A DNA stretch of 54,192 nt from Candidatus Aminicenantes bacterium (GTDB lineage: Bacteria; Acidobacteriota; Aminicenantia; UBA2199), in assembly GCA_024644125.1 (NCBI GenBank), contig JAHELQ010000001.1, forward strand, positions 1-54,192, read 5' to 3'. The notes beneath the pieces are model-generated. The model was not told the origin of the DNA, made no database searches, and saw only the letters and a list, made by a program, of their open reading frames with translations. This document shows, one piece after another, positions 24,724 through 53,600 of the stretch. Made by a program: the position numbers and the translations under genes. The stretch's first letter is position 1. Each line of letters begins with the position of its first letter.

Positions 24724-24848
24724 TTTTTTCTCCTTCTATAATAAATATTGTTATAATTTTACCAGATTGTACACAAATTTTCTACCCTTTGATAACCAAA
24801 GCTATTATATTTGTTCATTTATTACGTTAATATTCAACAATTAAGGGG

Positions 24849-26066: not shown

Positions 26067-26158
26067 ATTAACCTCCGTAATATACAAAAATGATTATATG
26101 TCAACAATCGTAATTATGTCAAGGAAACAAGCCCTGCAAAAGTACGGTTATATTGCGT

Positions 26159-26971
26159 TTATGATCCGAAGACGCCGTCAATTCCAAATAATTTCACCAG
26201 ATAGTGAGCCACCCCTTCGGAATATACGTCACTGGCCTTCATGGAGAATTGTTCTAGCAACGTCGGGACTGCGTTTCGCATCACTACGGGGTGCCCTACC
26301 AATTTTAGAGTTTCAAAATCGTTGTAATTATCCCCGAAATAAATCGCTTCTTGTACAGAGATGCCGGTTTGCAGGCACAATCTCGCGAGCGCTTTATCTT
26401 TGCGCGCATACGGAGGAGTCACTTCCAACCAGGACTCCTCCTTTCCTTCTGAATAGATCAATTGATACCGCTCCCCTACCAACTCCGAGAGCCCGCTCTT
26501 CAGGTCCTGCACCAGATAATTAGGTATCAAAGTGGAGATTCCGGTAATTCCGTCGAAGGAGGTAATCTCATCCAATTGCTCAAAGTAAGAACGTTTTTTC
26601 GTTTCGCCATGGCCTTTGTACAATACCTTGAAATCGCCGTTTTTTCCATTATATACAATGATGGGAACCTGTTGCTGGTCGAGGAAGTGGTAGATGGGAG
26701 CCACATCTTCAGCTTCGATTCCCATCTCCCAAACGATGGAGCCGTTCTGTTCACACAAGGTTCCGTTCTGTACGATGACTGTGATGTTTGGATCGAGGTT
26801 GCGGATATAATTGCGGGTGGTCAGGTAGTTGAAGCCGGTAATCAAGGCAATAGGAATTCCATTTGCCGAAAGTTGGTTCAATACATTGCACGTGAATTCG
26901 GGAATCACATGCTCACCGTAAGTTAGCGTTCCGTCGATATCCGATGCTATTAATCTCGGTAATTTGCTCAT
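26159..26971 (-). CDS. HAD-superfamily hydrolase, Cof-type sugar phosphatase-like
   Basis: 270 aa. HAD motif I is LIASDIDGTL. A cap-domain-sized insert is present. Motif IV is IYFGDNYNDFETL. Confidence 0.8.
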   Translation of the reverse strand: MSKLPRLIASDIDGTLTYGEHVIPEFTCNVLNQLSANGIPIALITGFNYLTTRNYIRNLDPNITVIVQNGTLCEQNGSIVWEMGIEAEDVAPIYHFLDQQQVPIIVYNGKNGDFKVLYKGHGETKKRSYFEQLDEITSFDGITGISTLIPNYLVQDLKSGLSELVGERYQLIYSEGKEESWLEVTPPYARKDKALARLCLQTGISVQEAIYFGDNYNDFETLKLVGHPVVMRNAVPTLLEQFSMKASDVYSEGVAHYLVKLFGIDGVFGS

Positions 26972-27151
26972 ACCTAATTATAGCGTATCGAGGTGCCATG
27001 ATCAAGCACTCTATCATCTACATCACGAGACGTCGATTGGAATTCGAGAGAACTCCGATGAAGCGGCTTTCGCCGAAGGACGGTTTGCCCGCGACCGGCA
27101 TTTTTTTTGCAGAGATGCATCGTCTCTTTTCAACGAACAATAAATGGTATC

Positions 27152-35997: not shown

Positions 35998-38900
35998 GTC
36001 GCGCTCCTTTTTTCTTGTTCAAACGCTGCCGTTTCAAATCTTTGCCTCTCGTCATCGAATCGATCCTCGTTTTTTCGATATCCGCGGCCTGCTGTCCGTG
36101 GGATTCTCCAGTTAGAAATTTCGATAAAGAATAGATAGATGGAAACCTGAACAGGGTTGTGACCGAAACATCCTTCCCCAACCTCTCTTTCAACTTTTCG
36201 TGCAGAGTGACGATTTTCAGGGAATTCCCGCTGATTTCAAAAAAATTGTCGTGAATGCCCACCTTTTCCAATCCCAAAACCTCTTTCCAGGCCTCGGCGA
36301 TGGCAGTCTCCAAATCGTCGCGGGGAGCCACAAATTGTCTGGAAGAATCCATGCGCGTTCCCGATTGTTTCAGTTTGGCGATATCCACTTTCCCTCCGAC
36401 TGTGAGAGGCATAACGTCAAGACTGACAAATTCGGCGGGAATCATATATTCGGGAAGTCTCTCCCCGAGCCAGGCCCTCAACGAACCGGTTTCGAGTTCT
36501 TCGCTCATTACGATATAGGCCCTAAGGAACTTTTCTCCATTTTCAACGATGGGTAATACCTTGGTCTGAAGAATAGACGGATTATGATGAAGGCAGGTCT
36601 CGATCTCTCCGGGCTCGATACGGTATCCACTAATTTTTATTTGTTTGTCGATTCGTCCTAGAAACTCGATGTCGCCGTTATCCAGCCACCGGGCCAAATC
36701 TCCGGTCCGGTAAAGATATCCATTTGAGCCGAACGGGTCGGTTATGAATTTTTCCGCTGTGAGATCAGGATGGTTCAGATACCCTCTGGCCACACCGTCG
36801 CCCCCTACCAGTAATTCGCCGGCCAAACCCGGCGGGCATAAAGAACTATTCCGGTCCACAATATAGGCTGTGGAATTGGCAATGGGCCTTCCAATAGGAA
36901 CTATCCCCTCCTTCACATCTTTTATCCGGCAAAAAGTCGAATATGTCGTGTTTTCTGTAGGCCCATACATGTGAATGAACGAGGTAGCCGGCGCCATGTG
37001 AAGTTGGCGTTTCACTTTCGCAGGATCGATAACATCGCCTCCCACCAGGATAGATGAAAGGGATGCAAACAATTCCGGTTCCTGATCGGTCAAGCGCATG
37101 AACAACGGTGTTGACATGAAGAGAACGTCGATTGCCAATCGCCGGAGCTCGATCTTCAAACGGGACGCTTCGAGTATGGACTCTTTATCTATTAAACAGA
37201 GACGCATACCGTTGGCGAGCGATCCCCATATTTCAAACGTGGACGCGTCGAACTCCAGCGCCCCAGTCTGCAACAAATGTGTGCCGGGTGAAAATTCCAG
37301 GTAATTGGTATTCCGTATCAACCTGACGATATGTTTATGGTTCACCATCACGCCTTTGGGATTTCCAGTGGAACCAGAAGTATAAATGATGTATGCCAAT
37401 TGAGACGGATCTCCGGTAAGTTCCAAATCTCTCTTCTCCGGCTCTGCCGTCATTTGGGAAATTGAATACTGTTCGACGACCAGTTCTTCACCGCTATGTT
37501 GATGAGTGGTGAGCAAAAGCTTCGCCTTTGTATCCGCCAGCATGAATTTTTGGCGGCCGGAGGGGTAAGATGGATTGACCGGTAAATAGGCGGCCCCAAC
37601 CGTCAGAATCGCAAAGATGCCGACAATCATCTCCAGACACGGCCCAGACATGATGGCGACAATATCCCCTGCTTCGATTCCTTTTTGAACCAATACCGAG
37701 GACAGCGTCCGTGCTTGATCCGCCAGCTCACGGTATGTCAATTGCCCGCCGCCATACGAAACCGCAATCCAATCGGGAAATTCTTCGACTTGTTCCCATA
37801 CCAGTCGATGCACAGTGCTTTGCCGTGGGTATTCTGTAGCAGTGTGATTCAGATCTTCCAAAATCCACTCCTTCGCCTCCGGCGACACTATGTCGATGTC
37901 TCCGATTTTCAGATGGTGATTTGCAAATACCGCGTTCAATATATCTTTGTAAATCCCGGCAAATCTCTCGATACTTTGGGGACGGTACAGGGTGGAAGTA
38001 TATTCTACCGTCAAGAATAGTTGATCGGTCATTTCTGTCATCGTGAAGTTCAAATCGAATTTTGATCGATTCAGATTGATTCGCTCCGCCTGCTGCCGGT
38101 TCACTTTGTCGGATGATTTTTTTATGAGATGATAGGAGAAAACCACATCAAACAAGGGATTACGGCTGGTGTCCCGTTGAAGTTCAAGGTGTTCCACCAG
38201 ATCCTCAAATGGATATTCCTGGTTCTCCATGGCCTGGAGCAAAAGTTTTTTGACCTGCTGGAGGAATTGAGCGAAGGGAATGTCGTCCTTCACAGTGATT
38301 CGCAACGGCAATGTATTGACAAACATTCCGATGATATGTTCGAGATCGTCATGACGCCTCCCTGCCACCGGAGTTCCGACCACCAGGTCTTGCTGGCCGC
38401 TCAGCTTATATAATAGTATATAATATGCAGCCAACGAAGCCATAAATCCTGTGACTTCCTGCCTGGCGCATAGCTCCTGAAGTCTGTTCAATTCATCCCC
38501 CCCCCAGGGAAACCGCTTTGTATCCCCGGAGAAATCCCGGATAACAGGCCTTGGGTAATCGGTTGCCATATCCAATGTCTGCATGGGGCTATCGAACGCT
38601 TCCAACCAGAATGCCTTCTGCTTTCCCAGGGTATCACGATGCATTTCATTGGCCTGCCAGAGCGCGTAATCCACATAGCGAACCGGGAGCTCCGGCAACG
38701 GCTGGCCCCGGTGAATCGATAAGAAATCACGTTGCAGGATATCCAACGATAATCCGTCGGCGATGATGTGATGCATATCCACCAACAATTGTAGTCTACC
38801 GTCGTCTCCTTCCAGCAATCCGACCCTGAACAATGGCGGATGGGCTAAATCGAATGGCCGGATAAATTCGTCATAGGACTGAACCCTCCCGATAAAGACA

Positions 38901-40930
38901 TCGATACGGTCAACTACACGTTGCACCGGTCGTCCGTTATGTATAGTGATATAGGTTCTCAAGCCATCGTGCCGTTCAACCAACTTCCCGATGACTCTAC
39001 CGATGGTAGCCGGATCTCTCCCTTCGGGCAACAGAATGATTTGAGGAAGATTGTAACTGGCGCCCACCCCGTCCATTTTTTGCAATACATACAACCGTGA
39101 CTGAGCCGGCGTGAGAGGGTAATAGTCTCTTTTTTCGGTTGCGGTAATGGGAGTGAATTCTTCACGGGCCATATCTTTTATGAGGAGAGCTTGCTTCTCG
39201 ATGGTATTTTGCTTGAACGCGGCGCCCAGCGATAATTTGAGATTGAAGCGGCTATGGATTTTCGTTATGAGGGTCATCATGTTTAACGAATTGCCTCCAG
39301 CGTTGAAGAACGTGTCGGTGACTCCGAATTTGTCTGTTTTCAATACCTCGGCCCAAACGCTCTTTAGATCCTCTTCAATCCGGTCGCGGGGTTCTACGAA
39401 GTCCTCGTCCGACGGCACAAGTTCCGCAAGAGCGGTAAAATCGATTTTTCCGTTCGGCTTCCGGGGAAACGTTTCCAGTTTGACAATTTTCGCCGGAATC
39501 ATGTAGTCTGGAAGCTGCCGCCGCGCATCCACCATCAACTGCCGCTCTATTTGGGCAGTTTCTCCGGTATTGATTACAAACGCGACCAAACGGTGATTCT
39601 CCCCAGGGAGTTCCTGTTTGATTACCGCCACCTCCCGCACATCATTCGATCGCGCGAGAACGCTCTCGATCTCTTCCAGCTCGATGCGCATGCCCCGAAT
39701 CTTGACTTGCCGGTCCACACGGCCCGTCAATTCCAGATTGCCGTCCGGCAACAAACGCCCCAGATCGCCGGTTTTATATATCAAATCACCGGGATCGTCG
39801 CTGAAGGGATTTGGAATAAAACTTGCTCGGTTTAATTCAGGATTGTTCAGATATCCCAACGAGCGGTACGGAGTACGAATATACACTTCCCCCACCATTG
39901 ATTGCTGGCAAATTTCCATCTGTTCATCCAATACAATCACGCGCGAGCCGGGAATCGGTTTTCCCACCGGCATATTGGAGCGGAGTACATCGTCCGCCGA
40001 GATCCGGTAAAAAAGTTTTGCCAGAGTGGTCTCTGTGGGACCGTATATATTGACCAATTGCACCCGGGAACCGATCCGCGCATACCATTGGCCCAATTCC
40101 GATGGGATGATGCGTTCGCCTGCCATCAACACATACCGCAATTGAGGAAATTGGTTCTGCCGCAAATTGCCGTTATTTACAATGCGAAAAATCGAAGGGA
40201 CACAATGGATGAGGCGTACGCCGGATTGTTCGATCCATTGGCTCAGGAGTTCTCCGTCGTAAACAATGTCTTTTTTTGGAGGTATGCACACTGCGGCTCC
40301 AGCGCACAGCGGCATCAGGACATCGCGCATATAGACATCAAATCCCGGAGTCGTCAACTGACTGACCCGGAAGGATTCATCGACTCCAAACTCTTCGATT
40401 TCCCACTCGATAAAATGGAGTAGCCCTTTGTTTCTACCGACCACCCCTTTGGGCGTCCCGGTGGTGCCCGAGGTAAAATATATATAAACCGGCCCCTCCC
40501 GATCGAAACTCGGAGGCTGGTAGGACGTACTCTCAGTATCGGACGCAGAATCGATCACATCGTTGAACATCAGGCATTGGGCAATCGGAGGATGTTCCAG
40601 GCGGCCGCAGATGACGGTTCGCAAATCAACGGCTTCGATCAGGGCCCCCAGCCGTCCGTCGGGCAGGGCGGTATCCAGCGGCACAAACGCGCACCCGGCC
40701 TTGAGGACCCCAACCAGGGCGACAATCAAATTCATCTTGTCTTCCATTAACAAACCGATGAAGGTTCCGGGAACAATGCCGTTTTTTTGCAAGCTTGCGG
40801 CAATCCTTCCGGCTTTCTCGTCCAGCTCGGCATAGGTCATCACCCGCTCGCCGCATTCCAGTGCAATATTCTTAGAGTGGGCGGATAGGCTATTCAGCAG
40901 TTTTTCTTCAATGGTGTTCACTTTCATCAT
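35987..40930 (-). CDS. Non-ribosomal peptide synthetase A-T-C-A-T
   Basis: I chose the start at ATG 40930 (MMKVNTIEEK) because AAAGGAGAG lies 3-4 nt upstream. The first module has A3 YIYFTSGTTGTPKGV followed by LLHFIEWEI, then T FFNAGGNSL. The C domain has EKRDYYPLTPAQSRLY and MHHIIADGLS. The second module has A3 YIIYTSGSTGNPKGV and T FFEISGNSL. The stop overlaps the PKS start by 11 nt. Confidence 0.9.
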   Translation of the reverse strand: MMKVNTIEEKLLNSLSAHSKNIALECGERVMTYAELDEKAGRIAASLQKNGIVPGTFIGLLMEDKMNLIVALVGVLKAGCAFVPLDTALPDGRLGALIEAVDLRTVICGRLEHPPIAQCLMFNDVIDSASDTESTSYQPPSFDREGPVYIYFTSGTTGTPKGVVGRNKGLLHFIEWEIEEFGVDESFRVSQLTTPGFDVYMRDVLMPLCAGAAVCIPPKKDIVYDGELLSQWIEQSGVRLIHCVPSIFRIVNNGNLRQNQFPQLRYVLMAGERIIPSELGQWYARIGSRVQLVNIYGPTETTLAKLFYRISADDVLRSNMPVGKPIPGSRVIVLDEQMEICQQSMVGEVYIRTPYRSLGYLNNPELNRASFIPNPFSDDPGDLIYKTGDLGRLLPDGNLELTGRVDRQVKIRGMRIELEEIESVLARSNDVREVAVIKQELPGENHRLVAFVINTGETAQIERQLMVDARRQLPDYMIPAKIVKLETFPRKPNGKIDFTALAELVPSDEDFVEPRDRIEEDLKSVWAEVLKTDKFGVTDTFFNAGGNSLNMMTLITKIHSRFNLKLSLGAAFKQNTIEKQALLIKDMAREEFTPITATEKRDYYPLTPAQSRLYVLQKMDGVGASYNLPQIILLPEGRDPATIGRVIGKLVERHDGLRTYITIHNGRPVQRVVDRIDVFIGRVQSYDEFIRPFDLAHPPLFRVGLLEGDDGRLQLLVDMHHIIADGLSLDILQRDFLSIHRGQPLPELPVRYVDYALWQANEMHRDTLGKQKAFWLEAFDSPMQTLDMATDYPRPVIRDFSGDTKRFPWGGDELNRLQELCARQEVTGFMASLAAYYILLYKLSGQQDLVVGTPVAGRRHDDLEHIIGMFVNTLPLRITVKDDIPFAQFLQQVKKLLLQAMENQEYPFEDLVEHLELQRDTSRNPLFDVVFSYHLIKKSSDKVNRQQAERINLNRSKFDLNFTMTEMTDQLFLTVEYTSTLYRPQSIERFAGIYKDILNAVFANHHLKIGDIDIVSPEAKEWILEDLNHTATEYPRQSTVHRLVWEQVEEFPDWIAVSYGGGQLTYRELADQARTLSSVLVQKGIEAGDIVAIMSGPCLEMIVGIFAILTVGAAYLPVNPSYPSGRQKFMLADTKAKLLLTTHQHSGEELVVEQYSISQMTAEPEKRDLELTGDPSQLAYIIYTSGSTGNPKGVMVNHKHIVRLIRNTNYLEFSPGTHLLQTGALEFDASTFEIWGSLANGMRLCLIDKESILEASRLKIELRRLAIDVLFMSTPLFMRLTDQEPELFASLSSILVGGDVIDPAKVKRQLHMAPATSFIHMYGPTENTTYSTFCRIKDVKEGIVPIGRPIANSTAYIVDRNSSLCPPGLAGELLVGGDGVARGYLNHPDLTAEKFITDPFGSNGYLYRTGDLARWLDNGDIEFLGRIDKQIKISGYRIEPGEIETCLHHNPSILQTKVLPIVENGEKFLRAYIVMSEELETGSLRAWLGERLPEYMIPAEFVSLDVMPLTVGGKVDIAKLKQSGTRMDSSRQFVAPRDDLETAIAEAWKEVLGLEKVGIHDNFFEISGNSLKIVTLHEKLKERLGKDVSVTTLFRFPSIYSLSKFLTGESHGQQAADIEKTRIDSMTRGKDLKRQRLNKKKGARHES

Positions 40931-40949
40931 AAGCTCTCCTTTAGAGGTT

Positions 40950-42326
40950 CTATTCCAGAGGTTGATTGAAGTCGTCAATCAAAACCTTACGTTGTTGAGG
41001 CCGCCCGGCGATCTCCAATTGACCTACCAGTATCTCTCCTGCGGTCAACACCTGGCGGATAATGCTCATCAATTGCTCCCCTACCTGGGACATCACACGG
41101 CGATCGATTGCCAACGCGTTGAAATCCAGGCGCACAAGGAAATTCAAATCCGGCACCACCTTCACGCTTAAATCAAAACTGGTATGGGCGAAGGAATCGA
41201 TATTCATTAATTGCGTTCCCTTATTTTCACGATTTTTTTCTACAGGATAACTGTCGAAGGAAACGATATGGTCGAACAAATCTTGCTTATGGGGTGTCAA
41301 TGCCTGGATATCCCCCAAAGGGAAATAATGGTGCGCCTCACCCTCGATGTGTTCGTTTTGTACGTTTTGCAAGACGTGAACAATCGTCATGCTGTCGTCA
41401 AAACGGATCCGCCGGGGAACAGTGTTGATGAACAACCCCAGCATCGTTTCTATGCCCGGTATTTCACCAGGGCGCCCGGAGACGACTGATCCGAAGATCA
41501 CATCGGTCACTCCATTGAATTTTGCCAGCGTGATCCCCCACATCGTTTGGGAAAAAATATTCATGGTGATTCGGTTGTTACGGACAAACCGTTGCAATAA
41601 CCGCAGATGATCTTGATCCAGGTGATATGACAACATTGCCTTCTTGTATCCGCTGCTCTGCCCTTGCAGCAGTGTTCTTCCCGGAGCCCCGGTTAGTTTG
41701 TTGTAATGAGCGAGATAGCGTCGCCAATATTCGCGGGAGGTAAGCCGGTCCTGCTTCTCCAACCATTCAATGTAATTGCGGAACGGAATGGCCGCTGCCA
41801 GGTTTGGTCGCCGGTTTTCCCGCATACTATTGTACATTTCAAAGAACTCGGACACGATAATTCCGGTACACCAGCCGTCCATCAAAATATGATGGTGGCT
41901 CCAGACAAACTCAAATTCCCGGTTTCCAAGATGGAACACCGCCACCCGCATCAACACATCCTTCGTTAAGTGGAATGGCTTGTGCACATCGTCCAGTCTA
42001 TATTTTTCAAGGAAGAGTTGCCGCTCGCGCCCGGTACCCATAGTCGCCAGATCTTCGTAATGAAACAGACATTTACGGCGATTCAACACCACTTGCAGAG
42101 GTTTCTCCCGGTCCTGGTAAACAAAGGCCGTGCGTAGAATATCATGCCTCTCGAACAACGCATCGAGACTTTTCTCGATTAGATCCGGTTCAAATTCGCC
42201 TTGAAGCCGGAACGAAGCTTGCTCGAAATAGGCTGTGCTATGCTCTTCCATCACGGAGTGCAGAAGCATCCCCTCCTGCATTGGGGTCAATGGGTAAATA
42301 TCCTGTATATTTCCTTTTGGTTTCAT
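40950..42326 (-). CDS. Free-standing condensation-domain protein (DCL-type signature)
   Basis: 458 aa. It starts IQDIYPLTPMQEGMLLHS, the N-terminal motif typical of C domains that follow E domains. The active site is HHILMDGWC, and GLFINTVPRRI is present. It has its own stop (TAG 40950-40952), and the next gene has its own SD and ATG. Confidence 0.85.
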   Translation of the reverse strand: MKPKGNIQDIYPLTPMQEGMLLHSVMEEHSTAYFEQASFRLQGEFEPDLIEKSLDALFERHDILRTAFVYQDREKPLQVVLNRRKCLFHYEDLATMGTGRERQLFLEKYRLDDVHKPFHLTKDVLMRVAVFHLGNREFEFVWSHHHILMDGWCTGIIVSEFFEMYNSMRENRRPNLAAAIPFRNYIEWLEKQDRLTSREYWRRYLAHYNKLTGAPGRTLLQGQSSGYKKAMLSYHLDQDHLRLLQRFVRNNRITMNIFSQTMWGITLAKFNGVTDVIFGSVVSGRPGEIPGIETMLGLFINTVPRRIRFDDSMTIVHVLQNVQNEHIEGEAHHYFPLGDIQALTPHKQDLFDHIVSFDSYPVEKNRENKGTQLMNIDSFAHTSFDLSVKVVPDLNFLVRLDFNALAIDRRVMSQVGEQLMSIIRQVLTAGEILVGQLEIAGRPQQRKVLIDDFNQPLE

Positions 42327-42344: not shown

Positions 42345-45300
42345 CTACTCCCCTACAAGAGAACCGATATGCTCCAGATCTTCCATCGAAAGGTCTTTGT
42401 ATGAAAAATCCGCCGGAGTCATCTCTCTCTCGCCTCGGGAAGAACAGAAATCGATCGTCTGCTTCAATTGCCCGGCAAACGTATCCAACAATCTTTCAAT
42501 ATCGTCGCCCTGAAATAGTTTTTCGCTGAACGAGGCGGTGATGTGCAGTTTACCTCCAATCACGATGCAGATGATATCCAATAAATATTCCCGTTGCTGA
42601 TCGAGGCTATGAGCCTGGCCGGTTGTGCTGTCCGCGATGACGCGGAAGGGCAATTCGGTGGTGTCCCTGTCGAATTGTCCCAGGTAATTGAAACTGACCT
42701 GGGGACCGGTTGTTGCCTTTAACGAAGACTTCGTCCCGGAACTCAAATATTTTAAAATCCCATAACCGATACCTTTTCGGGGGACCCGGCGCAACATCTC
42801 CTTTGTGTCGATAATATGGCGATCCAGCGATTGTGTCCCGTCTGATGTGAGCGACACCGGAAACACGCTGGTAAACCATCCGACAGTGCGCTGAACAGCG
42901 ATCTCTTCGAACAATTCTTCGCGTCCATGCCCTTCCAGGGCCACCAACAACCCGCTCTGCCCCCAGTGTTCGTTCACCGCGAGAGCCAACGCCGCCAACA
43001 GCAAATCGTTCATCTCAGTTCCAAACGCTTCATGCGCTCCGGTCAGGAGCGCTTCGGTATGTTCGACATCGAGCGCCACTGTTTTAGTTTGTTGATCTTT
43101 TACGAAATTCTCGGATTCATTGGCCTCCACAGGCAAATGGGCGCCGCCGGCATTCAAGACTCTGTACCAATAATCGAATTCTTCCTGTAGCGAGGACTCA
43201 TCTGCAAATTGCCGCAGCCGGTTTGCCCACGCTTTGATGGAAGAAGATTTCGACTGCAATTGCAGCGGCGTGCCCTGTTTGAGTTGGAGGTACAACTCAG
43301 CGATGTCTTCGAATAAAATTCGCCAGGACACACCGTCCACCACTAAATGGTGGATGACAATCAAAAGCCTATCCCCTTCATCCAGATGGAAGAGCCCGAT
43401 CTTCATCAACGGACCGTGTTCCAGATTGATTCGAGCTTGAACACCGTTCGCTTTTTCCACCAATGCCGCAGTCGGATCGCATTCATCCCGGAGATCGAAC
43501 TCTTCGATATGGACCGGCATCAGGTCATCGACAATCTCTGCGACTATCACCCCTTCATGTTCCCGAAACACCGTTCTAAGGGCGTCATGGTGTGACTGCA
43601 GGCGCTTGAATATCTTTTCCAACTTGGCTCGATCTAAACGCTCCTCCAGTTGAAGCGCCACCGCCTGATTGTAATGATGCTTGTCGATGATGATTTTTTC
43701 GAAGAATTCCGCCTGGCTGGGAAGGAGGGGAACGGACCCGGAGATTACGCCTGATTCTTTTTTTTGTGTGTTTGCAGTCACCATCGGCGCCAACTGCGCG
43801 ATGACCGGATGCCGGAACAGATCGCTCATTTTGAGTTTATATCCCGCTTTGTTCAAACGCGAGATGATCTGGATGGCTTTGATAGAATCGCCGCCAATGG
43901 AGAAGAAGTTTTCGTTGATTCCGATCTCTTTTCGTCCCAACACCTCTTGCCAGACTTTGGCCAACTCCTTCTCGACCGGCGACTGTGGCTCTTGAAAATC
44001 TTCGCCCGCCGTTCCAGTTGCGGAAATATCCATATTCGCCAATGCCCGGCGATCCAGTTTGCCTCCGGGAGTTTTGGGCATTTCATGCAAATATAGAAAC
44101 GATACCGGAATCATATACTCCGGCAACCGTTCCCGGCAATATGAAGCGAGATCATATTCATCCAGAGGATTTTTCGCTGTATAAAAGGCAACCAGGAACG
44201 CTCCGCCGGTTTCATCTTTGCGGTCCATCACCACAGCGTCATCCACGAACTTATATTCCCGTATTCTATTCTCTATCTCCCCCAATTCAATGCGAAAGCC
44301 GCGAATCTTCACTTGATGATCGATCCGCCCATGGAAAACCAATACCCCAGATTGGGAAAACGCCGCCAGATCTCCGGTTTTGTAGAGCCTTGCAAAGCAG
44401 CCATCATTGCCTTCGGCGAACGGATTTTCGATAAATTTATCATGTGTGGCTTCAGGATTGTTAAGATACCCGCGGCACACTCCGGCGCCGGAAATAACCA
44501 GCTCGCCGCGAATCCCAACCGGTTGAAGACGGAGATATTTGTCAACCACGTAACATGTGGTGTTGGCAATGGGTCTTCCCAAACTCACAGATTCAGGTCC
44601 ACAAGAGCATGCGACGGCATCGATGGTCGTCTCGGTCGGCCCATATTGGTTGAAGAGCGGATATCCCAATTCCAGCAATTGGTCTTTGACATGATTATCC
44701 AGCTTTTCTCCGCCGGAAATCACCACCTTCAACGCCGGAAGGCGCTTTTCGCCCAGGAGCATTTCTTTCAATAACGACGGTACGGCGTTGATGATTTCGA
44801 TCTCGTTCCGGCGCATGAAAGTGAGAAATTCCTCTTTATCGGTCAACAACCTCCGGTTGGTGAGAAACACGGTACCTCCATGCGCCAGAGTACCGAAGAT
44901 CTGTTCGACGCTGGGATCAAACGTATAACTGGTCATCGTCAAAACCTTTGTCCCATTGCCGACCTTATAGGTATCGCCATACCAGAGAAGGGTGTTGGCG
45001 GCGTTGCGCTGCTCGATCATCACCCCCTTCGGCGTACCGGTGGACCCCGATGTATAAATTATGTACGCCAGATCGGCTGCTTCGCCCGCATCCGGCGGAT
45101 CATGTTCAGGATACGAGGCGATGACCTCTTGCAATTGATCTTGCAATACGATCTCCCTTGCGATTCTCCTGTCCTTTTTTTGATCCCGCCGAACAAACGC
45201 GATGCCCGGGATTGTCTCCAATATATCGTCTGAAGGCAACGATCGCCCATTCTCGATATATTTTACCACCAACTCCGTAAACACGGTTTCCCCTTCGCTA

Positions 45301-47936
45301 AACACCAGACAATCGATGTTGGGGTCCTGAAGCAATGACTCGGAGTTTCTGGTGGCATACGGGCCTCCCGCCACGATGGGGCAACCGAATCCCCATTGGC
45401 GGATGAGGGCGATTGTGGAATGGAAAAAATCCCTATAAAACGTCAGGCTGCGGGCCCCGATAATATCCGGTTTGAATGATTCCAGAAGCTCCTTCAACCG
45501 GCTATGGCTATCGAAGTCGATTCGGGACTTCAAAATTTTGCCGTTTATCCTGTCGCCCAATCGCTCGTTGAGATAGGTCATCACGTACACCGCCCCCAGA
45601 GGAGGTTCCACCACATCATACAGCAGGTCTGTATCGCTACTGTAATGTTGGGACAGGTCCAACATCAAGATCTTCACCGCGTCGGCGGAGGGCTGCCGGG
45701 CTGGGAACTGCCGTTTGAGTTTTTGATTCAAATCCGGAACCCGGAATGTGTCGTCGTCAACAAAGCCCCGCCCCCCGAGTTCGCTTCGTTCCAATCCCAG
45801 GAATTCCAACAAGGAGTCAAAGTTATCGAGTTCTTCGGGAAAATAACTATCATACTTTTGCACTATCTCATCTTCGGTCATCACGCTCATTTGCACAGGT
45901 AGGACCTTGAGAAGCCGCTCTTTGTCGAGAAAATATTCGTTGATGAATTCCGCCTGGTAATTGGCGGTGAAGCTCTTGTCGAAAGGCGACGTGGGCGACG
46001 GTTCATGAAACGCCATGTTCTCCGAGCGGTAGATGTCTTCTTCGGCGATTCCGTTCTTCATGGCCAGATCCGCCATCCCGGTGTGCGGGTAAATTTTCAG
46101 GTTGAAGATATAGGGAAAGTGGACCCAATGCAGACTCTTGATAAAATCCAGAGTCATACGCGCCTCTTCTTCAGTTTCAGTTGGAAAGCCATGGATGGAG
46201 AATAGTTCGAGAATCACCTGCGGGTGCTTTTGGCAGAAGTATTCGATGTTTTCCCGGAATATATCCAATTTCAGGTTTTTCTTGATGAGGGTTTGCAAAC
46301 GGGGCGACGCCGTTTCGAGCGCCAGGGCGGTGGCGGTGAGTCCGGCCTCCACCAGGAGATCGATGTAATCTTTTGTCAGAAGATCTCCTCGTAACCCATT
46401 GGGAAAAAACAATTGCACATCCAGGTTGTTTTTTACGATCATCTCTAAAAATCGCATCCCATTCTCACGGTTCAAGTTGAAGATATCGTCGAATATGGAA
46501 AACCGCCGGACTCCCATGTCGTAATAGAGTCTCATCTCTTCGAAGATGCTATCGGCGGAGCGGAATACATGGTTACGCCCCCATATTTTACTGCAGTAGG
46601 CGCACTGGTAGGGACAGCCGCGGGCGGTTTGCAGCGAGATGGTGTTTTTCACCATCACCTGCCCGATATAATTGCAGTATTTTTCCAGATCGATCATTGA
46701 TCGGTCCGGGAATGGCAAACTGTCTAAATCGGTGATCTGCTGAGCCGGCTGCGTGACAATGGGTTGCACGCGGCGTCGATCCAATCCCTGAAGTTTTGTA
46801 TATTGATTTTTTTTCAAGGTGTTCTGGTTTGTCAAGAGAACCGGAGCTTCGCAATCATCCAGCATGGTGCAAACGCGATCGCTGGGCAATCCTGGATCCA
46901 CCGGCAGATACGCGCCGCCGGCCTTCATAATCCCAAGCAACCCTGGAACCATGTCCGGTGATGGTTCCATCATGACGCCGGCGATCGTATCCTCCCCCAC
47001 CCCTTTTTCCTTCATCATCCAGGCGATACGATTGGCTTTTTTATTTAATTCCCCATAGGTCAGAGAATGCCGCTCGCCGCTCTGGGTGTTTTCAAACACC
47101 AGCGCGATTCCCTCCGGCTGCGTTTCCACCTGTCTCTTGATCAATTGGGGAATAGTATGCTCCTCCGGAAAGTTTTTATTGGTATCATTAAATTCTTCAA
47201 GTATGCGGACGCGCTCACCGCCGGCCAGCAATTGAATGTTTACCAACGGCTCGTCTAGAGTTTCGACAGCATGTAGCAGAAGTCGGCAAAAGTGTTCCTG
47301 AATGGATTTCGTAAGACCTGTCGAATACAAGTCGCTGTTGAATTCCAGTGTGAGGCGAAGCTCCTGCTCGTGCCGTTGAAAAATAAACCTGATATTCAGC
47401 GGAAGCCCCGCTAGATCGTCTTTGCGATGAATATTCTCCAGCAATACCGCGACATCGAACAGGGGAAAATGGTTTCCCGACACTGGAAGATTCAATTTGA
47501 ACAGCAACGTCTCCAGAGGGTAGTTCGAATGTTCGTCCGCCTCGATGATCGATTGCCGCGCTTCGAGAAGCAACTCTTTGAACGACATCGTTTCGGTGAG
47601 TTTGGTTCGAATGGCGAGGGCGGTGTTGAGATATTCCTCATCTTCTTCGTGTCGATAGATTGGTATTCCGACAATGATATCGTCCATTCCCGAATATTTC
47701 TTCAATAAAGCGATCACCGCCGTAACCAGGATCATATGAAGCCTGTGATCCGATTGATTGCTCATCCGAAACAAACGTTCCGACACGTCGGCCTGCATAT
47801 CGATCGAGATCTCCATCATCTGCGGCGGCGTATCGCCGGCGGAAATTTGCAGGTCCGGTGGAAATGCCGCCAGGGCGAGTTCTCCAGATAGTTTTTCCAG
47901 CCAATAGGTTCCCTCGGGGGTAGTATGTTCTGTCAT
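42345..47936 (-). CDS. Non-ribosomal peptide synthetase: C-terminal half of a C domain - A domain interrupted by radical SAM + B12-binding didomain - T - E
   Basis: I chose the start at ATG 47936 (MTEHTTPEG), with AGGAGG 6 nt upstream. The N-terminal ~240 aa align only to the C4-C7 region of C domains and lack HHxxxDG. A1/A2 are LTYGELN and [11 protein letters not shown]. The insert carries CPYQCAYC and a B12-type Rossmann block. The A domain resumes with A3 [17 protein letters not shown], A5 NQYGPTE, A7 YKTGD, A8 [20 protein letters not shown] and A10 PGGKLDR. The T motif is FFSIGGDSI. The E domain has [10 protein letters not shown] (43323-43352). The C-terminal tail is [24 protein letters not shown]. 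Confidence 0.9.
   Translation of the reverse strand: [1863 protein letters not shown]
45093..46775 (-). other. In-frame radical SAM (CxxxCxxC) + cobalamin-binding-type didomain inserted between A-domain core motifs A2 and A3
   Basis: [14 protein letters not shown] has its Cys triad at nt 46593-46616, and [11 protein letters not shown] is present. Next comes [46 protein letters not shown] (nt ~45213-45674). The borders are approximate. Confidence 0.8.
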
Positions 47937-47952: not shown

Positions 47953-50676
47953 TCAAAAAGTGAAATCCCCATCCAGATCGCGGGTGCGGGGAGCTCGTTT
48001 CAGTTTTTTCACCTTGTGCCTGTCATCCACACGCGATCCCCTGTCCTCGAACTCCTCGAACGAAGGGACGGCGTTTTCATGCAAGCGTTTCCAGCGTTGA
48101 TCCGCCTTGTACAATTCGTGAACAGTAAAGGGATTGGGGACTCCCAAAGTCTTGCAATGCTCGGCGAACCGGTTCATCCGCCGGTACGCCTCTTCCCGCG
48201 ACGGCATACAATCCGCCACCCAGGTATCGATCCGGAGCATGTCCCGGTGGCGTTCTGGGTAGAGCGAATACCGCCTGTCCGCCCAGGCGCGGGTATCGAC
48301 CTGTCCGGTGGGATAATAATAGAATGGGCATCCCCAGACCTCGTAGATGTGATCTTGCAATTCCTCGATCAAATTCAATGTCTGCTGGAAGTCCTCTTCG
48401 GTTTCTCCGGGAAATCCGATCACCCAGCACGTGGATGTTTTGATGCCCGCGTCCGCCAAACTGATGACCGCCTCCTTCACCTGGTCCACTGTGATCTTTT
48501 TATTCATCAAATCCAATACCCGCTGCGAACCACTTTCGATTCCAAGTTTCGCCTTATAAAACCCGCCCCGCCGCCACATCAATGTGGTCTCCCGGTCGGT
48601 GACCGGTTTATCGGCCCTGAGATACCCATCCCAATAAATGGCCTGCTCCTCGTCTATCAATGTGTTCGCCAGGTCGGTGGCCACGGGATTGAGCAAAGAA
48701 TCGCACAGCAGAAAAAGTTGCCTGCCGCTTTTTTGATGGAGATATTTGAGTTCCGCGGCGATTTGTTTGCCGCCTTTTTTCCGAAAATTCCCCCATTGAA
48801 CGGTTTCGGAACAAAATTTACATTGAAACGGGCAACTGCGCGATCCATAACTGGCGGCCATCAAATAAGCGTCCAGATCAAAATCATCAAAATCCGGCAC
48901 CGGGGCTTCGGCCAACGGCAATGTCTGATTTCCGATGTCCTGGATCGAGTAGATATTTTTGTCCTTAGGTAGTTCGTTCTGAAGATATTTCAAGAGCAGG
49001 AGCTCTCCTTCGCCGATGAAGAAGGCGTCGATACAATCGTTTTTCGCCAAAAACAGATCCCAATTGGGAGATCCCGGCGCCAATTGTTCGGAAAAAACAC
49101 CGCCCCCCATCACTGTCCTAACAGCGGGATTTTTCTCGCGGGCCAGGCGCGCTACAAAAATCGATGTGGGAAGATTGGTCTCAAACACCGAAAAACCGAT
49201 GACATCGGGAGCTTCACGTTCGAGTATATGATCGAAAAAGAGTTCAAGGCCGGCGTAGAATTCCTGTACCAACCGGATCATTTCTTCGATCACCAGCCGG
49301 TCTATATCGGTATAAAACGTTTTGGCCACAAGAATTTTAACAAGCTCCCTGTATTCATCCGGATCGGTGAAATGGAGATGGGCCATCAAATGATTCTGCA
49401 ACACATCCTTTCCGGTGACAAAATAATTTCCCCATTTGTTTTCAGGTACGACGCGCGCCAACGTTTCAAAATAGGCGCTATGAAACTGCCGGAATCTATC
49501 TTCGATATTCGCGTCAACCGTGGTTACCGGATATCCGTACCGGGTCAGAAAACTCTTGAGGCAAGCGATCCCCAACGGCGGAATCAGAGGCGACCAAAAC
49601 GGCAACATGACCAGAAGGATTTTCTCCTTCGAGTGCGAATCGAGATGCCCCAGATCGAAATGGATTTCGGTTGCCAATTTCTCCAGCATTCCGTCTGGAG
49701 GATTGAGTTCCAGATCTTTCAGAGCTTGCTCTCGGGTGATTTCCCCGGAACGGATCAGTGTCGAGTACTCGTCATGATAGTGGGTGTAACCGCGTACATT
49801 CAGATCCCGGAAGGAATTGAGCCAGATCATGTCGCAGTTTGTGGTGCGGGTTGGATAACTGGCTTTTATCGGCCGCCAATCGAACCGTTTCCGGCAAATG
49901 GCCTGCAATTCTTGTTTATCTGTTTTGTAGAATTTGAATACGAAAAAAGGTACAAAAAGAATTTTCCCTGAGTTGACCGGATTTTCAAGATCCCGTCGTT
50001 CCCGGTAAATCACCTGTTTTTTCAATATATTCCACTTATTTTGAAATTTTTCGAAGAATTCCTGATCGCCGCTATTCATGGCGATTTCAATCATTTTGGA
50101 GAACCATTGATGCGCCTTGTAGTCGTCATGCATCATCGCGGCCTGCCCTTTGGAGTATCCATTGATCACCAGAGGGATATCAAAATGATCCGCCAATTCC
50201 AGACCGTTCAAATACAACATGTTGCCGCAAGCGAAGCACGGACTCACCTCGGTTTCATTGGACTCATTGAAGTACTTGAACAATTTGCGCATGAAGCCGA
50301 GATCGTTCTTCCAGATCACCAGATCGACATCCAGCTCCTTGCAGAGCTTCTCGACATTCCTGGTGGCTTCGGGATCGTCCCAGCCATGATCGCTATGGAA
50401 TGCCAGCGGCCGCAATTGATAGTTTTCTACCAGGGTAATCAGCGTAAAACAGCTATCCACACCTCCGCTTAACGGCACCAGCACATCGTATTGCCTTCCG
50501 GGGTTCCGGTATTTTTGCAGAGCTGATTTCACTTCGGCCTCGCTGGTAAAATCAGTGGTCGAGCCGCCTTCGGCGGCCACTTTATATTCATTGCAAAAAT
50601 TACAAATCCCTCCCTCATCAAATTGGATCCCGGGAAATGTCTCGGGTAACACACACTTTTTGCAGGTTTTCATCAT
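47953..50676 (-). CDS. Tri-domain fusion: PP-loop ATP pyrophosphatase (N-acetyl-sugar amidotransferase/WbuX-like) + B12-binding domain + radical SAM domain
   Basis: 907 aa with AAGAGGAG SD. The N-terminus CKKCVLPETFPGIQFDEGGICNFCNEY is followed by the PP-loop PLSGGVDS (50452-50469). The B12-type block is KILLVMLPFWSPLIPPLGIACLKSFL..VIGFSVF..VMGGGVF..FIGEGE. The radical SAM part has SRSCPFQCKFC (48811-48834), GIESGSQRVLDLM and VIGFPGETEEDF. Confidence 0.85.
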   Translation of the reverse strand: MMKTCKKCVLPETFPGIQFDEGGICNFCNEYKVAAEGGSTTDFTSEAEVKSALQKYRNPGRQYDVLVPLSGGVDSCFTLITLVENYQLRPLAFHSDHGWDDPEATRNVEKLCKELDVDLVIWKNDLGFMRKLFKYFNESNETEVSPCFACGNMLYLNGLELADHFDIPLVINGYSKGQAAMMHDDYKAHQWFSKMIEIAMNSGDQEFFEKFQNKWNILKKQVIYRERRDLENPVNSGKILFVPFFVFKFYKTDKQELQAICRKRFDWRPIKASYPTRTTNCDMIWLNSFRDLNVRGYTHYHDEYSTLIRSGEITREQALKDLELNPPDGMLEKLATEIHFDLGHLDSHSKEKILLVMLPFWSPLIPPLGIACLKSFLTRYGYPVTTVDANIEDRFRQFHSAYFETLARVVPENKWGNYFVTGKDVLQNHLMAHLHFTDPDEYRELVKILVAKTFYTDIDRLVIEEMIRLVQEFYAGLELFFDHILEREAPDVIGFSVFETNLPTSIFVARLAREKNPAVRTVMGGGVFSEQLAPGSPNWDLFLAKNDCIDAFFIGEGELLLLKYLQNELPKDKNIYSIQDIGNQTLPLAEAPVPDFDDFDLDAYLMAASYGSRSCPFQCKFCSETVQWGNFRKKGGKQIAAELKYLHQKSGRQLFLLCDSLLNPVATDLANTLIDEEQAIYWDGYLRADKPVTDRETTLMWRRGGFYKAKLGIESGSQRVLDLMNKKITVDQVKEAVISLADAGIKTSTCWVIGFPGETEEDFQQTLNLIEELQDHIYEVWGCPFYYYPTGQVDTRAWADRRYSLYPERHRDMLRIDTWVADCMPSREEAYRRMNRFAEHCKTLGVPNPFTVHELYKADQRWKRLHENAVPSFEEFEDRGSRVDDRHKVKKLKRAPRTRDLDGDFTF

Positions 50677-50691: not shown

Positions 50692-53600
50692 CTATAGGTC
50701 GAATTGAAAATCGCCCTGTTCTTGAATTGTTTTCCGGACAGGAAGTTGCGGGCCTGAATCCAGATCGCCGATGGGCCGGTCGCAATTCTCGATTACGCTC
50801 TTCACCAAACTTTTGTATTTTTCTGCGATGATCTCGATTGTCCGGCGTTTATATAAATCGGTGGCATAGATGATCATAAAAGCCATTCCCTTGTTGGTTT
50901 CGAAGCCCATCCAGTCCATGTCTATTTTGGTGGTCTCCTGAAAAATCTTGTAATAAGAAATATCAAGCCCTTCCAGATTCATCGCTTCATTCTCGAATGT
51001 ATTGACATCCTGATTCCGTACTTCAAATATTGTGTCAAACAACGGGTTCCGGTTACTGCCGCGATGTTTCCAGACCTTGTTCACCAAATTTTCAAATGGA
51101 TAGGCCTGATTTTCATAGGCTTTGAACGAACGATTTACAACTTCGCGCAAGAAATCGCGGAATGTTTTTCCCGGCGTTGGGAAATTTCGCAACGCGATGG
51201 TATTGATGAACACTCCCGCCACGGGCTCGAGCTCCTTATTGATACGGCCGACTACGGGAATTCCCACGGAAATGTCGTTCTTACCGGAAAGACGCGCCAG
51301 CAACACATAAAATACCGCCAACATCACAATATGAATGGTTCCCCCTTCGTTTGCGGCCAATTTCAGGACGAGTTCCCGTTCGTTTGTATCAAACCTCAAT
51401 TCCACAAAACTTCCTTTGTTGCCGGGTTTCGCCAGAGGAGCATAATCATAGGGATAATCCAACAACGACGGAGCTTCGCGATATTCATTGAGCCAAAAAT
51501 CCTCTTGTTTCTGGATGAGTTCCCGATACGCCTCGCTATTTTGCCATTCGGAGTAATCCTTGTATTGAAGGGGCAACTCCGGGAGCTCCAGCCCCTTGTA
51601 AAGTTGCAAAAACTCGCGGAAAATATTGTTCTGGGTCATCACGTCCGAAATAATGTGGTGGGTATCGATGACCATGATATGTTTCCGTTCTCCGGTTTTG
51701 ATGAGAGCGGCCCTGATAAGCGGGGGTCTCTCCAGATCAAACGGGCGGATATATTGACGGATCACCGGGTCCGGGGAACCTTCCGGATAAAACCAATCGA
51801 TGTTGAATTCCACATGGGAGTGGATTTTTTGTACGGGAGAATCCCCTTCCATGTGAAACGAAGTTCGTAAACTCTCATGCCGCTGAATGAGTATTCGAAA
51901 AATCTCCTGGAATCGTTGCGCGTCGAAATCCCCTTCCAACAAGACATTCATATAGATATTATAGGCGACGGAATCATCCTCCATTTGCTGAATGATATAT
52001 AGCCGTTGTTGAGCCGAAGAGAGCGGATAGCTCTCTTTTTGAGGGGCCCGTGGAATCATGATCGCTTGCTGTTGATTCCTGCCCCGGATAACGATCGCCA
52101 ATTCCCGGATGGTGGGTTTGGAAAAAATTTCCGCTAGAGTGATCTCCACGTCCAGGCGATTGCTGATGCGGGCGATGACCTGATTGGCCTTTAGCGAGTG
52201 GCCGCCCAACTGGAAGAATTCATCCTCGATACCGATTTTTTCCTCCGGGATCTCCAGCACTTCGGACCAGATCTTTACCAACACCCGTTCGACTTCATCC
52301 CCCGGCGGCACATGATTGGAATTTTTTTCCGCTCGAGGAGCGGGAAGCAATGCTCGGTCCACTTTACCGTTTATATTAAGGGGCATGTTATCCAGTTGAA
52401 TGAAATAGGTCGGGACCATATACGACGGTAATTCTGCCGACAGGAATTTTCGGATTTCGCGGGAATCGAGGCTGTCTTCCCCCGCGGTGATATACGCGCA
52501 CAAATGTTTTTCCCCGGTATCATCTTCAGTCGCCAAAACCACCGCTTCGGTGATAGCGGGAAATCTCAACAATTGATTCTCGATTTCTCCAGGCTCGATA
52601 CGGGTCCCCCTTATTTTGACCTGCCCGTCGGTACGGCCTGAAATCTCCAGGTTTCCGCAAGGTAACATCCGTCCTAGATCACCGGTTTTATAAACAATAT
52701 CCATTGGATTGGCGCTGAACGGATTGGGGATGAAGACCTGCTCGGTCATTTGGCGATCGTTAAAATATCCTGATGTCATGAACGGCGTCCTGATATAAAT
52801 CTCTCCCCGTTGACCCGGCTCGCACCGCTGCATCCTGCTATTCAAAAGCAAGGCCTGACTTCCCTGAATGGGTTTCCCCACAGCGACAACAGGCTTATCT
52901 TTATCCTCCGGCTGGATTCTGTAAAAGAATTTCACCATCGTGGTTTCGGTAGGCCCGTATAAATTCACCAATTGGATGCGGTCGTCGAACAATTCGATAA
53001 ACCTGCGAATATCATTGCCTCTCAGCAATTCTCCCGCCAGAAGAATATATTTAACATGCTTGAGTTGACTTGAAGCGGACAAATGTCCGGTCATCTCTTT
53101 GAACAACGATGGAACCATATGAATGAGATTAACCTCTTCCTCATCGAGCCATTGGATCAATTTGTCCATATCCCTCAGAACTGCCGGTTGGGGAATGCAA
53201 CATGTGCCTCCGCATGACAACGGAACAAAAATATCCCGGAGAAAAGGATCAAACGTTGGAGGCGTCAATTGACTGACCTTGAAGCTCTCATCGATTGCAA
53301 ACTCCCCTATCTCCCATTGGATGAAATGCGCAAGGCTAATGGTGCGCCCCAATATTCCTTTAGGAACACCGGTCGATCCTGATGTAAAATATACATAGCA
53401 GTGCTTGTTATCCATTGGTACAATTGATTCCAGTAGTTCGGTACCAGTGGAAATATCTTCATACTCTACAATTTCCGGGGGATCAACCATACCTTCCAGA
53501 ATTCCGCTCAACATATTTAGATGGTCTGTGGATGTGATCAGGAGAGCTGGCTTCAATTCATCCAACATTCGCTTGATTCGGTTCTCGGGTAAAAAAGGGG

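Follow-up and report, generated by a model that had tools for sequence, protein, structure and literature searches.

A PP-loop ATPase fused to a B12-binding radical SAM enzyme, a candidate in-line tailoring enzyme of modular assembly lines in Candidatus Aminicenantes

In a 54,192-nucleotide stretch of DNA from a Candidatus Aminicenantes bacterium (assembly GCA_024644125.1, contig JAHELQ010000001.1, positions 1 to 54,192; hereafter the window), the gene at 47953..50676 on the minus strand encodes a PP-loop ATPase of the Fe-S type fused to a B12-binding radical S-adenosylmethionine (SAM) enzyme. The gene lies within a hybrid nonribosomal peptide synthetase-polyketide synthase (NRPS-PKS) cluster, and from sequence comparisons we read its product as a two-domain tailoring enzyme that would act in line on the growing chain, by thioamidation and then radical methylation; we give this reading roughly even odds (about 0.5). 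Established are the architecture of the protein, its conservation and synteny, the homology of its N-terminal half both to N-acetyl-sugar amidotransferases (NASATs) and to the thioamide-forming enzyme CtaC, and the presence of a triad of cysteines. A first-pass annotation, made from the letters of the sequence alone, had not recognized the fusion as a described family, and we likewise found no description of a PP-loop/B12-radical SAM fusion in the open-access literature, though the CtaC paper noted homologues beside NRPSs (PMC6772006).

Translation of the window gives a single frame of 907 codons with no internal stop, closed by a TGA at 47955-47953. The first-pass annotation had described one uninterrupted 907-amino-acid open reading frame (ORF), in which a PP-loop ATPase with an N-terminal CxxC...CxxC pair is followed by a B12-binding domain and a radical SAM core. 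This description is borne out: the motifs that it quoted (CKKC, CNFC, SGGVDS, KILLVMLPFWSPLIPPLG, CPFQCKFC, GIESGSQRVL and VIGFPGETEEDF) are all in the translation where it had placed them, Pfam and NCBIfam return the same order of domains, and the hidden Markov models that it had proposed to run (TIGR03573-like, PF02310 and PF04055) all give matches far beyond chance. The N-terminal PP-loop domain (amino acids 1-346; 49639..50676, minus strand, as are all features of the gene) is matched by TIGR03573 (WbuX) over residues 2-323 of the whole protein (E 1.4e-45, profile positions 1-314 of 344). It carries a zinc-ribbon tetracysteine, C5, C8, C25 and C28 (CKKC...GICNFC, 50593..50664), and the PP-loop SGGVDS at S70-S75 (50452..50469). 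A Rossmann domain of the B12-binding type with a helical insert follows (amino acids ~353-590, 48907..49620), called from PF02310 (residues 484-558, 37.7 bits against a cut-off of 32.1), from TIGR03975 (residues 353-886, E 6e-31) and from structural matches of an AlphaFold2 (AF2) model. The radical SAM core comes next (amino acids 612-770, 48367..48843; PF04055, E 1.6e-16), and its CPFQCKFC (C615-PFQ-C619-KF-C622) is encoded at nucleotides 48834-48811. The protein ends in an acidic-aromatic tail, GDFTF-COOH (47956..47970), which is a candidate docking peptide.

The gene is wedged between two NRPS genes on the same strand. Upstream lies NRPS1 (50692..53847, minus), which Pfam reads as adenylation, thiolation and condensation domains (A-T-C) and whose C domain retains HHIISD; downstream lies NRPS2 (42345..47936, minus), which Pfam, with NCBIfam on the insert, reads as half a C domain, an A domain interrupted by a radical SAM and then a B12-binding domain, a T domain and a C domain. 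The TAG of NRPS1 at 50694-50692 is 15 nucleotides before the ATG of the fusion gene (50676), with an AGAGGAG Shine-Dalgarno sequence between them, and the ATG of NRPS2 at 47936, with GGAGGA ahead of it, is 16 nucleotides past the fusion stop. These coordinates agree with the Shine-Dalgarno sequence and the 15- and 16-nucleotide spacings reported in the first pass, and such tight spacing supports its suggestion of co-transcription with the flanking NRPS genes.

The fusion is not confined to this contig. A search for other proteins of this architecture had been proposed in the first pass, and a homologue search covering 5.8 billion proteins found the fusion in ten further full-length proteins (P0002-P0011; 49-84% identity) from NCBI, JGI, ENA and Logan assemblies, so that about ten independent clusters have it at full length; the alignment (A1) shows both halves conserved and linkers of variable length. 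Each half is also found as a stand-alone family, the B12-radical SAM proteins being of ~565 amino acids and 50-58% identical to the C-terminal half, and the PP-loop proteins being of 345-380 amino acids and 48-73% identical to the N-terminal half. Most annotations in the two families read Candidatus Aminicenantes or 'hypothetical'. Most relatives of the window's locus are likewise Candidatus Aminicenantes, and the nearest (L006) carries the label 'uncultured Clostridia'. Elsewhere the two halves are encoded by neighboring genes, the PP-loop gene coming first in L007 and L017 and the radical SAM gene first in L008, so that the pairing, fused, split and reversed, is a classical Rosetta-stone pattern. 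Those split versions (L007, L008 and L017) are also what one would cite in favor of an artefact, in which sequencing or assembly error had merged two genes, a danger that the first-pass annotation had itself raised. We consider an artefact ruled out for all practical purposes because the fusion is conserved at full length in independent assemblies and is split in either gene order elsewhere. Moreover, the frame in the window is continuous, the linkers of the ten other fusions vary, and split PP-loop proteins that precede a radical SAM gene bear a C-terminal tail of their own, and no such tail is present where the halves of the fused proteins meet.

The first-pass annotation assigned the N-terminal domain to the WbuX/WbpG type of amidotransferase, and as to fold it was right. 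NASATs are defined by a PP-loop together with a CXXCXn[GN]XCXXC zinc site (PMC10607449). Both are present here, as C5KKC8 ... G23-I-C25-N-F-C28, (near-)invariant in alignments A2 and A4, and as SGGxDS at amino acids 70-75, invariant in A1, A2 and A4. Taken alone, the domain has TIGR03573 as its best family match (159.3 bits, E 1.7e-46), the family profile matches the Legionella NASAT structure 8WEX over its full length (E 5e-29), and the AF2 model (predicted local distance difference test score, pLDDT, 93) has 8WEX as its best PDB match in Foldseek (template-modelling score, TM, 0.66). With WbuX, WbpG and this Legionella enzyme (LpNASAT) it therefore shares the fold, the tetracysteine zinc site, the PP-loop and a C-terminal helical region, and presumably the adenylation of an amide oxygen.

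In other respects the domain departs from the NASATs. Its score falls below the curated TIGR03573 cut-off of 203.2 bits, whereas a genuine NASAT from a plasmid, with hisH and AglZ/HisF2 as its neighbors, reaches 295.1 bits; its context is one of NRPS genes and not of sugar-nucleotide genes. Genuine NASATs in L028 and L029 adjoin hisH, AglZ/HisF2 and neuC; among those window ORFs with 150 or more amino acids that were scanned against Pfam, we found no HisH/HisF-type ammonia partner, and the scanned neighbors were NRPS and PKS genes. The domain also has three extra conserved cysteines, C147-x-x-C150 (SPCFACGN) and C281 (RTTNC), that are absent from genuine NASATs and from 8WEX in our alignments, A2 among them. 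In the 113 family members of alignment A4, C147 and C150 (C147-F-A-C150, 50227..50238) are invariant and C281 (49834..49836) is conserved in at least 90%, and we predict these residues to be the first two and the third ligand of a [4Fe-4S] cluster. To gauge the triad more widely we ran an exhaustive HMMER search with the PP-loop domain, which gave 3471 representative relatives at E <= 1e-3, genuine NASATs and other distant relatives included. The best 150 of the 3471 comprised 148 newly returned proteins, 129 of them full-length (300 amino acids or more), and the triad is intact in 111 of these 129; among the 19 with a length of at least 600 amino acids it is intact in 17. Close family members number several hundred and come mostly from uncultured Candidatus Aminicenantes.

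Known PP-loop enzymes with three-cysteine cluster sites offer a partial parallel. In the Foldseek table 8WEX is followed directly by two [4Fe-4S] thiolases, TtuA and NcsA, and then by asparagine synthetase-type enzymes and YcfA; lower down is 8CNZ (mmLarE-[4Fe-4S]), whose CYNC aligns with C147/C150 in a sequence-profile search. TtuA, TtcA, NcsA and Methanococcus LarE resemble our domain in combining a PP-loop with a three-cysteine cluster site, which here is predicted, and TtuA also in its N-terminal zinc finger. The similarity is weak, with a TM of about 0.4 and sequence E values from 1e-5 to 0.5, and these enzymes act on tRNA or a nicotinate cofactor and not on peptides tethered to carriers.

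The closest functional parallel that we propose is CtaC, of the closthioamide pathway of Ruminiclostridium cellulolyticum. CtaC, a PP-loop enzyme of the AANH type that carries a [4Fe-4S] cluster, thioamidates solely those peptides that are loaded on the carrier protein CtaE, and its residues D77, S78, C154, C157 and C284 are required for this reaction, which depends on the peptidyl carrier protein (PCP) (PMC6772006). Some 75% of the homologues of CtaC have thiotemplated biosynthetic genes in their vicinity, many of the homologues are near NRPSs, and the legend of a figure of representative clusters names radical SAM among the gene types (PMC6772006). Homologues adjoining NRPS or PKS genes had been noted in anaerobes. 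Three peptide stretches of CtaC were rebuilt from the mutagenesis primers in that paper's supplementary information. A word-index protein search with the three stretches returned no match, and a metagenome scan with their 50-amino-acid concatenate found an orthologue (L032:2506-3615) in a closthioamide-like cluster. This orthologue carries VMLSGGKDSVYVAYLLSK, DCSQICFFCGRLLK and YISSGCKLAK, and it, not CtaC itself, was compared with our domain. Its neighbors on JGI contig Ga0079226_10000695 (L032, 92-5872), judged by eye only, are acyl-CoA-synthetase-like, aminotransferase-like and ATP-grasp-like.

The two are homologous over their full length. The family profile aligns with the orthologue over 293 columns in hhalign (probability 98.7%, E 2e-16), BLASTP gives E 8e-18, and the zinc ribbon, the PP-loop, the CxxC and the third cysteine are all in register. 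D74 and S75 match the essential D77 and S78 of CtaC, C147/C150 align with the CFFC of the orthologue (CtaC C154/C157), and C281 aligns with its SSGC (CtaC C284). The spacing is similar as well, at 73 residues from D74 to C147 as against 77 in CtaC and at 131 from C150 to C281 as against 127. With the aspartate and serine, the three cysteines and this homology, the domain has the sequence features of an Fe-S PP-loop enzyme of the CtaC/TtuA type. CtaC works on carrier-bound peptides, and the genomic position of the fusion enzyme would place it to do the same. There are differences, too: identity is ~23-26%, the family profile is closer to NASATs, and CtaC is a stand-alone enzyme of an NRPS-independent pathway, acting iteratively on poly-beta-alanine, whereas here the domain is fused to a B12-radical SAM enzyme inside a canonical modular NRPS and has a candidate docking tail.

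Does the domain, then, install nitrogen or sulfur? A NASAT-like amidotransferase would replace the oxygen of an amide (or N-acyl) group with ammonia or an amine to give an amidine, cyclic if a side-chain amine attacks, which the radical SAM domain would then methylate. The best model and the best solved structure are indeed those of NASATs (for hhalign, E 1.3e-27), the tetracysteine and PP-loop that define that family are present, and the interrupted A domain has acidic pocket residues, E239 and D331, that would fit a diamino acid from which a cyclic amidine could arise. Nevertheless, because the CtaC orthologue likewise has TIGR03573 as its best match, at 125.1 bits and also below threshold, the 'WbuX-like' call cannot separate nitrogen chemistry from sulfur chemistry. 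The score of our own domain is well short of the 295 bits of a genuine NASAT, the invariant CxxC...C triad is missing from every genuine NASAT examined, and the HisH/HisF2-type genes that flank genuine NASATs were not found in the window (ORFs of at least 150 amino acids, Pfam). We therefore judge amidine formation unlikely. Thioamidation is favored over it because the triad, which genuine NASATs lack, lines up with the residues that ligate the [4Fe-4S] cluster in CtaC, and we favor placing the N-terminal domain, on this alignment, in a triad-bearing, natural-product-associated clade that would work like CtaC. The first-pass annotation had listed amidation, amidine formation and thio-substitution side by side; thio-substitution is the best supported of these and the other two less so, and the amidotransferase chemistry implied by its family name is probably wrong.

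Relatives of the PP-loop domain, whether separate proteins, joined behind terminal C domains or lodged in A domains, invariably belong to NRPS/PKS lines, and those that are built into NRPS proteins indicate where such an enzyme may act. In metagenomic proteins Pfam shows T-C-PPloop (P0243, P0244 and P0247) and C-A-T-thioesterase (TE)-PPloop (P0245) architectures, and in one protein, P0242, the PP-loop match apparently lies between the A and T domains. On a Roseovarius pelagicus plasmid (NZ_CP106737.1; L026, 6415-14463) the domain sits inside an A domain, after an A8-like motif and before AMP-binding_C, and a Streptomyces sp. NBC_01216 plasmid (L027, 8938-11118) encodes a PPloop-C didomain after an A-T protein. 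Cultured bacteria thus have NRPSs with the triad-bearing domain in cis. P0243 (912 amino acids) had been a candidate for a reversed radical SAM-PP-loop fusion, which its T-C-PPloop architecture rules out. The commonest cis position is directly after a terminal C domain, the same place that the stand-alone or fusion gene occupies, and the C domains upstream retain their HHxxxD motif. The simplest reading of these arrangements is that the enzyme would modify the condensation product on the next carrier domain. These covalent relatives, together with the conserved synteny described below, support the earlier proposal of a tailoring enzyme acting on carrier-bound intermediates.

The fusion gene, or its two halves as adjacent genes, or the PP-loop gene lies between an NRPS gene that ends '...T-C' and one that begins 'half-C-A...' in the window and in L001, L003, L006, L007, L008, L009, L012, L015 and L016. 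In four loci (L001, L003, L006 and L007) the fusion or split pair is followed by a half C domain and an A domain interrupted by a radical SAM domain. A PP-loop gene alone is directly 5' of an interrupted NRPS in L009, L012, L015 and L013, the last being the cultured strain Clostridium frigidicarnis DSM 12271 (NZ_FOKI01000060.1), and in L008 an ordinary C-A-T-C module comes between the split, reversed pair and the interrupted NRPS downstream of it. The co-occurrence with an interrupted-A-domain NRPS that the first-pass annotation had suggested checking is accordingly seen in 9 of 13 informative PP-loop loci, in 8 directly downstream and in 1 a module further. Counting any B12-radical SAM unit that is adjacent to the PP-loop gene or embedded in the NRPS just downstream, the figure is 11 of 13.

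Interrupted A domains are known with methyltransferase, ketoreductase or oxidase inserts that act on the tethered building block, and for some methyltransferase inserts the a2-a3 insertion site is known. NRPS2 resembles them in having a tailoring domain inserted in its A domain, and differs in what is inserted. Its insert, of ~540 amino acids between motifs A2 and A3 (45168..46805, minus), consists by Pfam of a radical SAM core (CPYQCAYC; residues 449-611 of the 1875-amino-acid frame) followed by a B12-binding domain (789-901), and so reads as a permuted class-B radical SAM enzyme; the insert of L026 is a PP-loop domain. The radical SAM part of the NRPS2 insert shares only 25% identity with that of the fusion, and in a comparison of at least 10 loci the conservation of the insert is 54-93%. 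A single specificity code, DPENIG[QH]IDK, is common to the interrupted A domains. No substrate was assignable to it by the extraction used, a crude regular-expression method with positions 299 and 301 read by eye, which in other modules yielded the known codes for Asp, Phe, Gly and Gln. We found no description of a radical SAM-interrupted A domain in the open-access literature. As a further variant, a JGI contig (L003, 4357-9960) has an NRPS with a ThiF-family-interrupted A domain after a stand-alone B12-radical SAM gene, in the same cluster as a PP-loop-radical SAM fusion.

This conserved building block invites a different reading, in which the PP-loop domain would apply other adenylation chemistry to the residue loaded by the interrupted A domain and not to the backbone: conversion of a side-chain carboxylate to an amide, nitrile or thioacid, in the manner of QueC or AsnB, or thionation of a side-chain amide, with the two radical SAM units remodeling that residue. 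PGAP names stand-alone plasmid homologues in Bacillus 'QueC', and Pfam gives weak QueC matches; the PP-loop gene co-occurs most with the interrupted A domain of this one code; and in L013 it precedes what appears to be the first module. The QueC matches are marginal, however, at about 21 bits, PP-loop genes also stand ahead of ordinary modules (L010 and L016) and beside PKS genes (L019 and L020), and the cis fusions directly after C domains suit a condensation product. We consider chemistry on the building block improbable, a little more so than amidine formation.

We now turn to the C-terminal half, which is a class-B radical SAM enzyme and probably a C-methyltransferase acting on a tethered intermediate, as judged from its sequence and its predicted structure; it was aligned (A5) and modeled separately from the PP-loop half (A4). 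All 120 family members have the CX3CX2C motif. TIGR03975, the family of C-methyltransferases of peptides that are made by ribosomes and modified after translation (RiPPs), matches over its full length with 107.5 bits against a cut-off of 281.85, and the other NCBIfam matches are also far below theirs, so that this half is below every NCBIfam cut-off. In its AF2 model (pLDDT 92) the nearest structures are MgmA, TsrM, OxsB and AprD4, followed by CysS and TokK; MgmA is the glutamine C-methylase of MCR, and the CysS and TokK matches are structures with pantetheinylated substrates. The half thus resembles the class-B radical SAM methyltransferases (the PoyB/C type of TIGR03975, MgmA, CysS, TokK and TsrM) in its N-terminal B12 domain and CX3CX2C core, in the full-length TIGR03975 match and in its best structures, MgmA and TsrM, with CysS and TokK using pantetheine-linked substrates. 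It differs in belonging to a distinct clade of ~565 amino acids, mostly from Candidatus Aminicenantes, that is found between NRPS/PKS genes and has a (D/E)FxF tail, and in being fused here to a PP-loop domain. MiaB and RimO are among the fold matches, and a MiaB-like methylthiotransferase was considered and rejected because the N-terminal domain lacks the three-cysteine auxiliary cluster site, only C27 of alignment A5 being conserved there.

Both halves share a C-terminal signature with the synthetases around them. All 11 fusions end in (D/E)GDFxF; the tail also ends 64 of 109 stand-alone radical SAM proteins (by a strict pattern) and 51 of 60 long PP-loop proteins, but none of 59 short ones. 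NRPS and PKS proteins just upstream bear the same tail (loci L001-L023), which in NRPS1 is GDFQFDL (50692-50715, minus). After 30 tail-bearing proteins the next gene encodes a PP-loop protein in 12 cases, a B12-radical SAM protein or radical SAM-interrupted NRPS in 10, a half-C NRPS in 7 and a full-C NRPS in 1, whereas tail-less proteins are mostly followed by proteins that start with an A domain, a full C domain or a ketosynthase (KS) domain. The half C domain that opens NRPS2 is the C-terminal lobe only (Pfam Condensation positions 192-452; ~240 amino acids, at about 47211-47921 in the window). We propose from these patterns that the (D/E)FxF tail is a docking peptide and the extra C lobe its receptor; these assembly lines seem to have a docking code of their own. 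We found no description of the tail in the open-access literature.

A shared docking signal would by itself bring the two halves together, and they may be chemically unrelated, fused for the reason that both dock at the same inter-protein junction and with no coupled reaction between them. Each half is abundant alone in NRPS/PKS clusters (~110 stand-alone radical SAM proteins, which lie between NRPS/PKS genes, and ~120 PP-loop proteins), both bear the same tail, and there are junctions with only the radical SAM gene (L003 and L005) or only the PP-loop gene (L010 and L016). Set against this are the recurrence of the pairing in fused, split and split-reversed form and the B12-radical SAM unit found next to the PP-loop gene, or embedded just downstream, in 11 of 13 informative loci. 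We hold independence of the halves to be a real but lesser possibility, and it is compatible with thioamidation plus methylation except for the claim that both modify the same residue.

The sequence of events that we envisage for the coupled enzyme is as follows. The C domain at the end of the upstream A-T-C protein would form a peptide bond, leaving the intermediate on the carrier of the next module, and the fusion enzyme would dock by its (D/E)FxF tail, perhaps onto the half C domain that opens the downstream NRPS. The PP-loop domain, with a [4Fe-4S] cluster held by C147, C150 and C281 as their conservation suggests, would adenylate the amide carbonyl oxygen with ATP, and cluster-bound sulfide would replace the oxygen with release of AMP, yielding a thioamide as CtaC does on PCP-bound peptides. 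The cobalamin-dependent radical SAM domain, to judge from its family, would then methylate an unactivated carbon of the same or a neighboring tethered residue.

Several points weigh against this scheme. The family profile is nearer to a genuine NASAT (8WEX TM 0.66) than to the CtaC orthologue, the cysteine triad could serve a structural or other role, and no sulfur-donor gene was seen in the cluster; the closthioamide cluster also lacks one (PMC6772006). Class-B radical SAM enzymes include non-methylating members, with BchE, OxsB and AprD4 among the matches of the C-terminal half, which is itself below all curated methylase-family cut-offs, and the second radical SAM domain in the neighboring A domain makes the division of labor ambiguous. 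Finally, the PP-loop gene of L013 (contig 1-5900) has transposase fragments only and no NRPS upstream of it, and therefore a nascent peptide bond as the target is not a general proof. That contig ends inside the NRPS, and its cluster may be truncated 5' as well.

The remainder of the window gives the setting of the gene. The hybrid NRPS-PKS cluster that contains it spans 27455-53847 (minus). Beyond NRPS2, Pfam identifies a free-standing C domain (40950-42326), an A-T-C-A-T protein (35987-40978), a protein with KS, acyltransferase (AT), ketoreductase (KR), T and TE domains (30565-35997) and a beta-lactamase/ABC-ATPase fusion (27455-30538), all on the minus strand. The free-standing C domain (458 amino acids, HHILMDG) directly follows NRPS2, whose own last domain is a complete C domain (HHLVVDG), and together they are a second tandem-C junction of the cluster. 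At the cluster's end, the 1027-amino-acid fusion combines a beta-lactamase fold (residues 39-354) with an ABC-transporter ATPase (834-965) and could serve in export, self-resistance or product release. The stretch 25-19058 on the plus strand encodes a second, unrelated NRPS of four modules with a TE (4193 amino acids), which reaches the window edge. The NRPS is followed by a PLP-dependent (PALP) enzyme and then by dehydroquinate synthase, dehydroquinase, a shikimate dehydrogenase-kinase fusion, EPSP synthase and chorismate synthase, an arrangement that suggests a dedicated supply of chorismate. The housekeeping stretch at 18000-27000 (parAB, der, ispF, PIN-TRAM, HAD) has a G+C content of 39-42% and both biosynthetic clusters one of 47-53%, which could reflect horizontal acquisition or a compositional bias of megasynthases.

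More speculatively, and we put this forward as a tentative idea, the PP-loop/Fe-S domain, the fused B12-radical SAM domain and the radical SAM-B12 insert of the A domain may together form a composite in-line tailoring module. Such a module would have its own docking code (the tail and the half C domain) and a dedicated building block (DPENIG[QH]IDK), and would make a backbone change new to nonribosomal peptides, for example a thioamide residue bearing a C-methyl group, or a thioamide that radical or cobalamin chemistry has altered further. It would be widespread in uncultured Aminicenantes and present also in the cultured Clostridium frigidicarnis DSM 12271.

Among nonribosomal peptides, essentially only closthioamide has been known to contain thioamides, and the pathway that makes it is non-modular (PMC6772006). 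If our reading is true, canonical modular NRPS/PKS lines would also introduce thioamides into the backbone, and methyl groups by radical C-methylation, while the chain grows, by enzymes that stand alone, are fused to each other or lie within the synthetases. As to annotation, the automated labels 'N-acetyl sugar amidotransferase', 'QueC' and 'TilS' would be misleading for the triad clade. The PP-loop domain with its cysteine triad, the (D/E)FxF tail and the radical SAM-interrupted A domain offer a handle for genome mining, and enzymologists would gain a testable system that includes one cultured host. The finding points to a large family of assembly-line tailoring enzymes in uncultured anaerobes.

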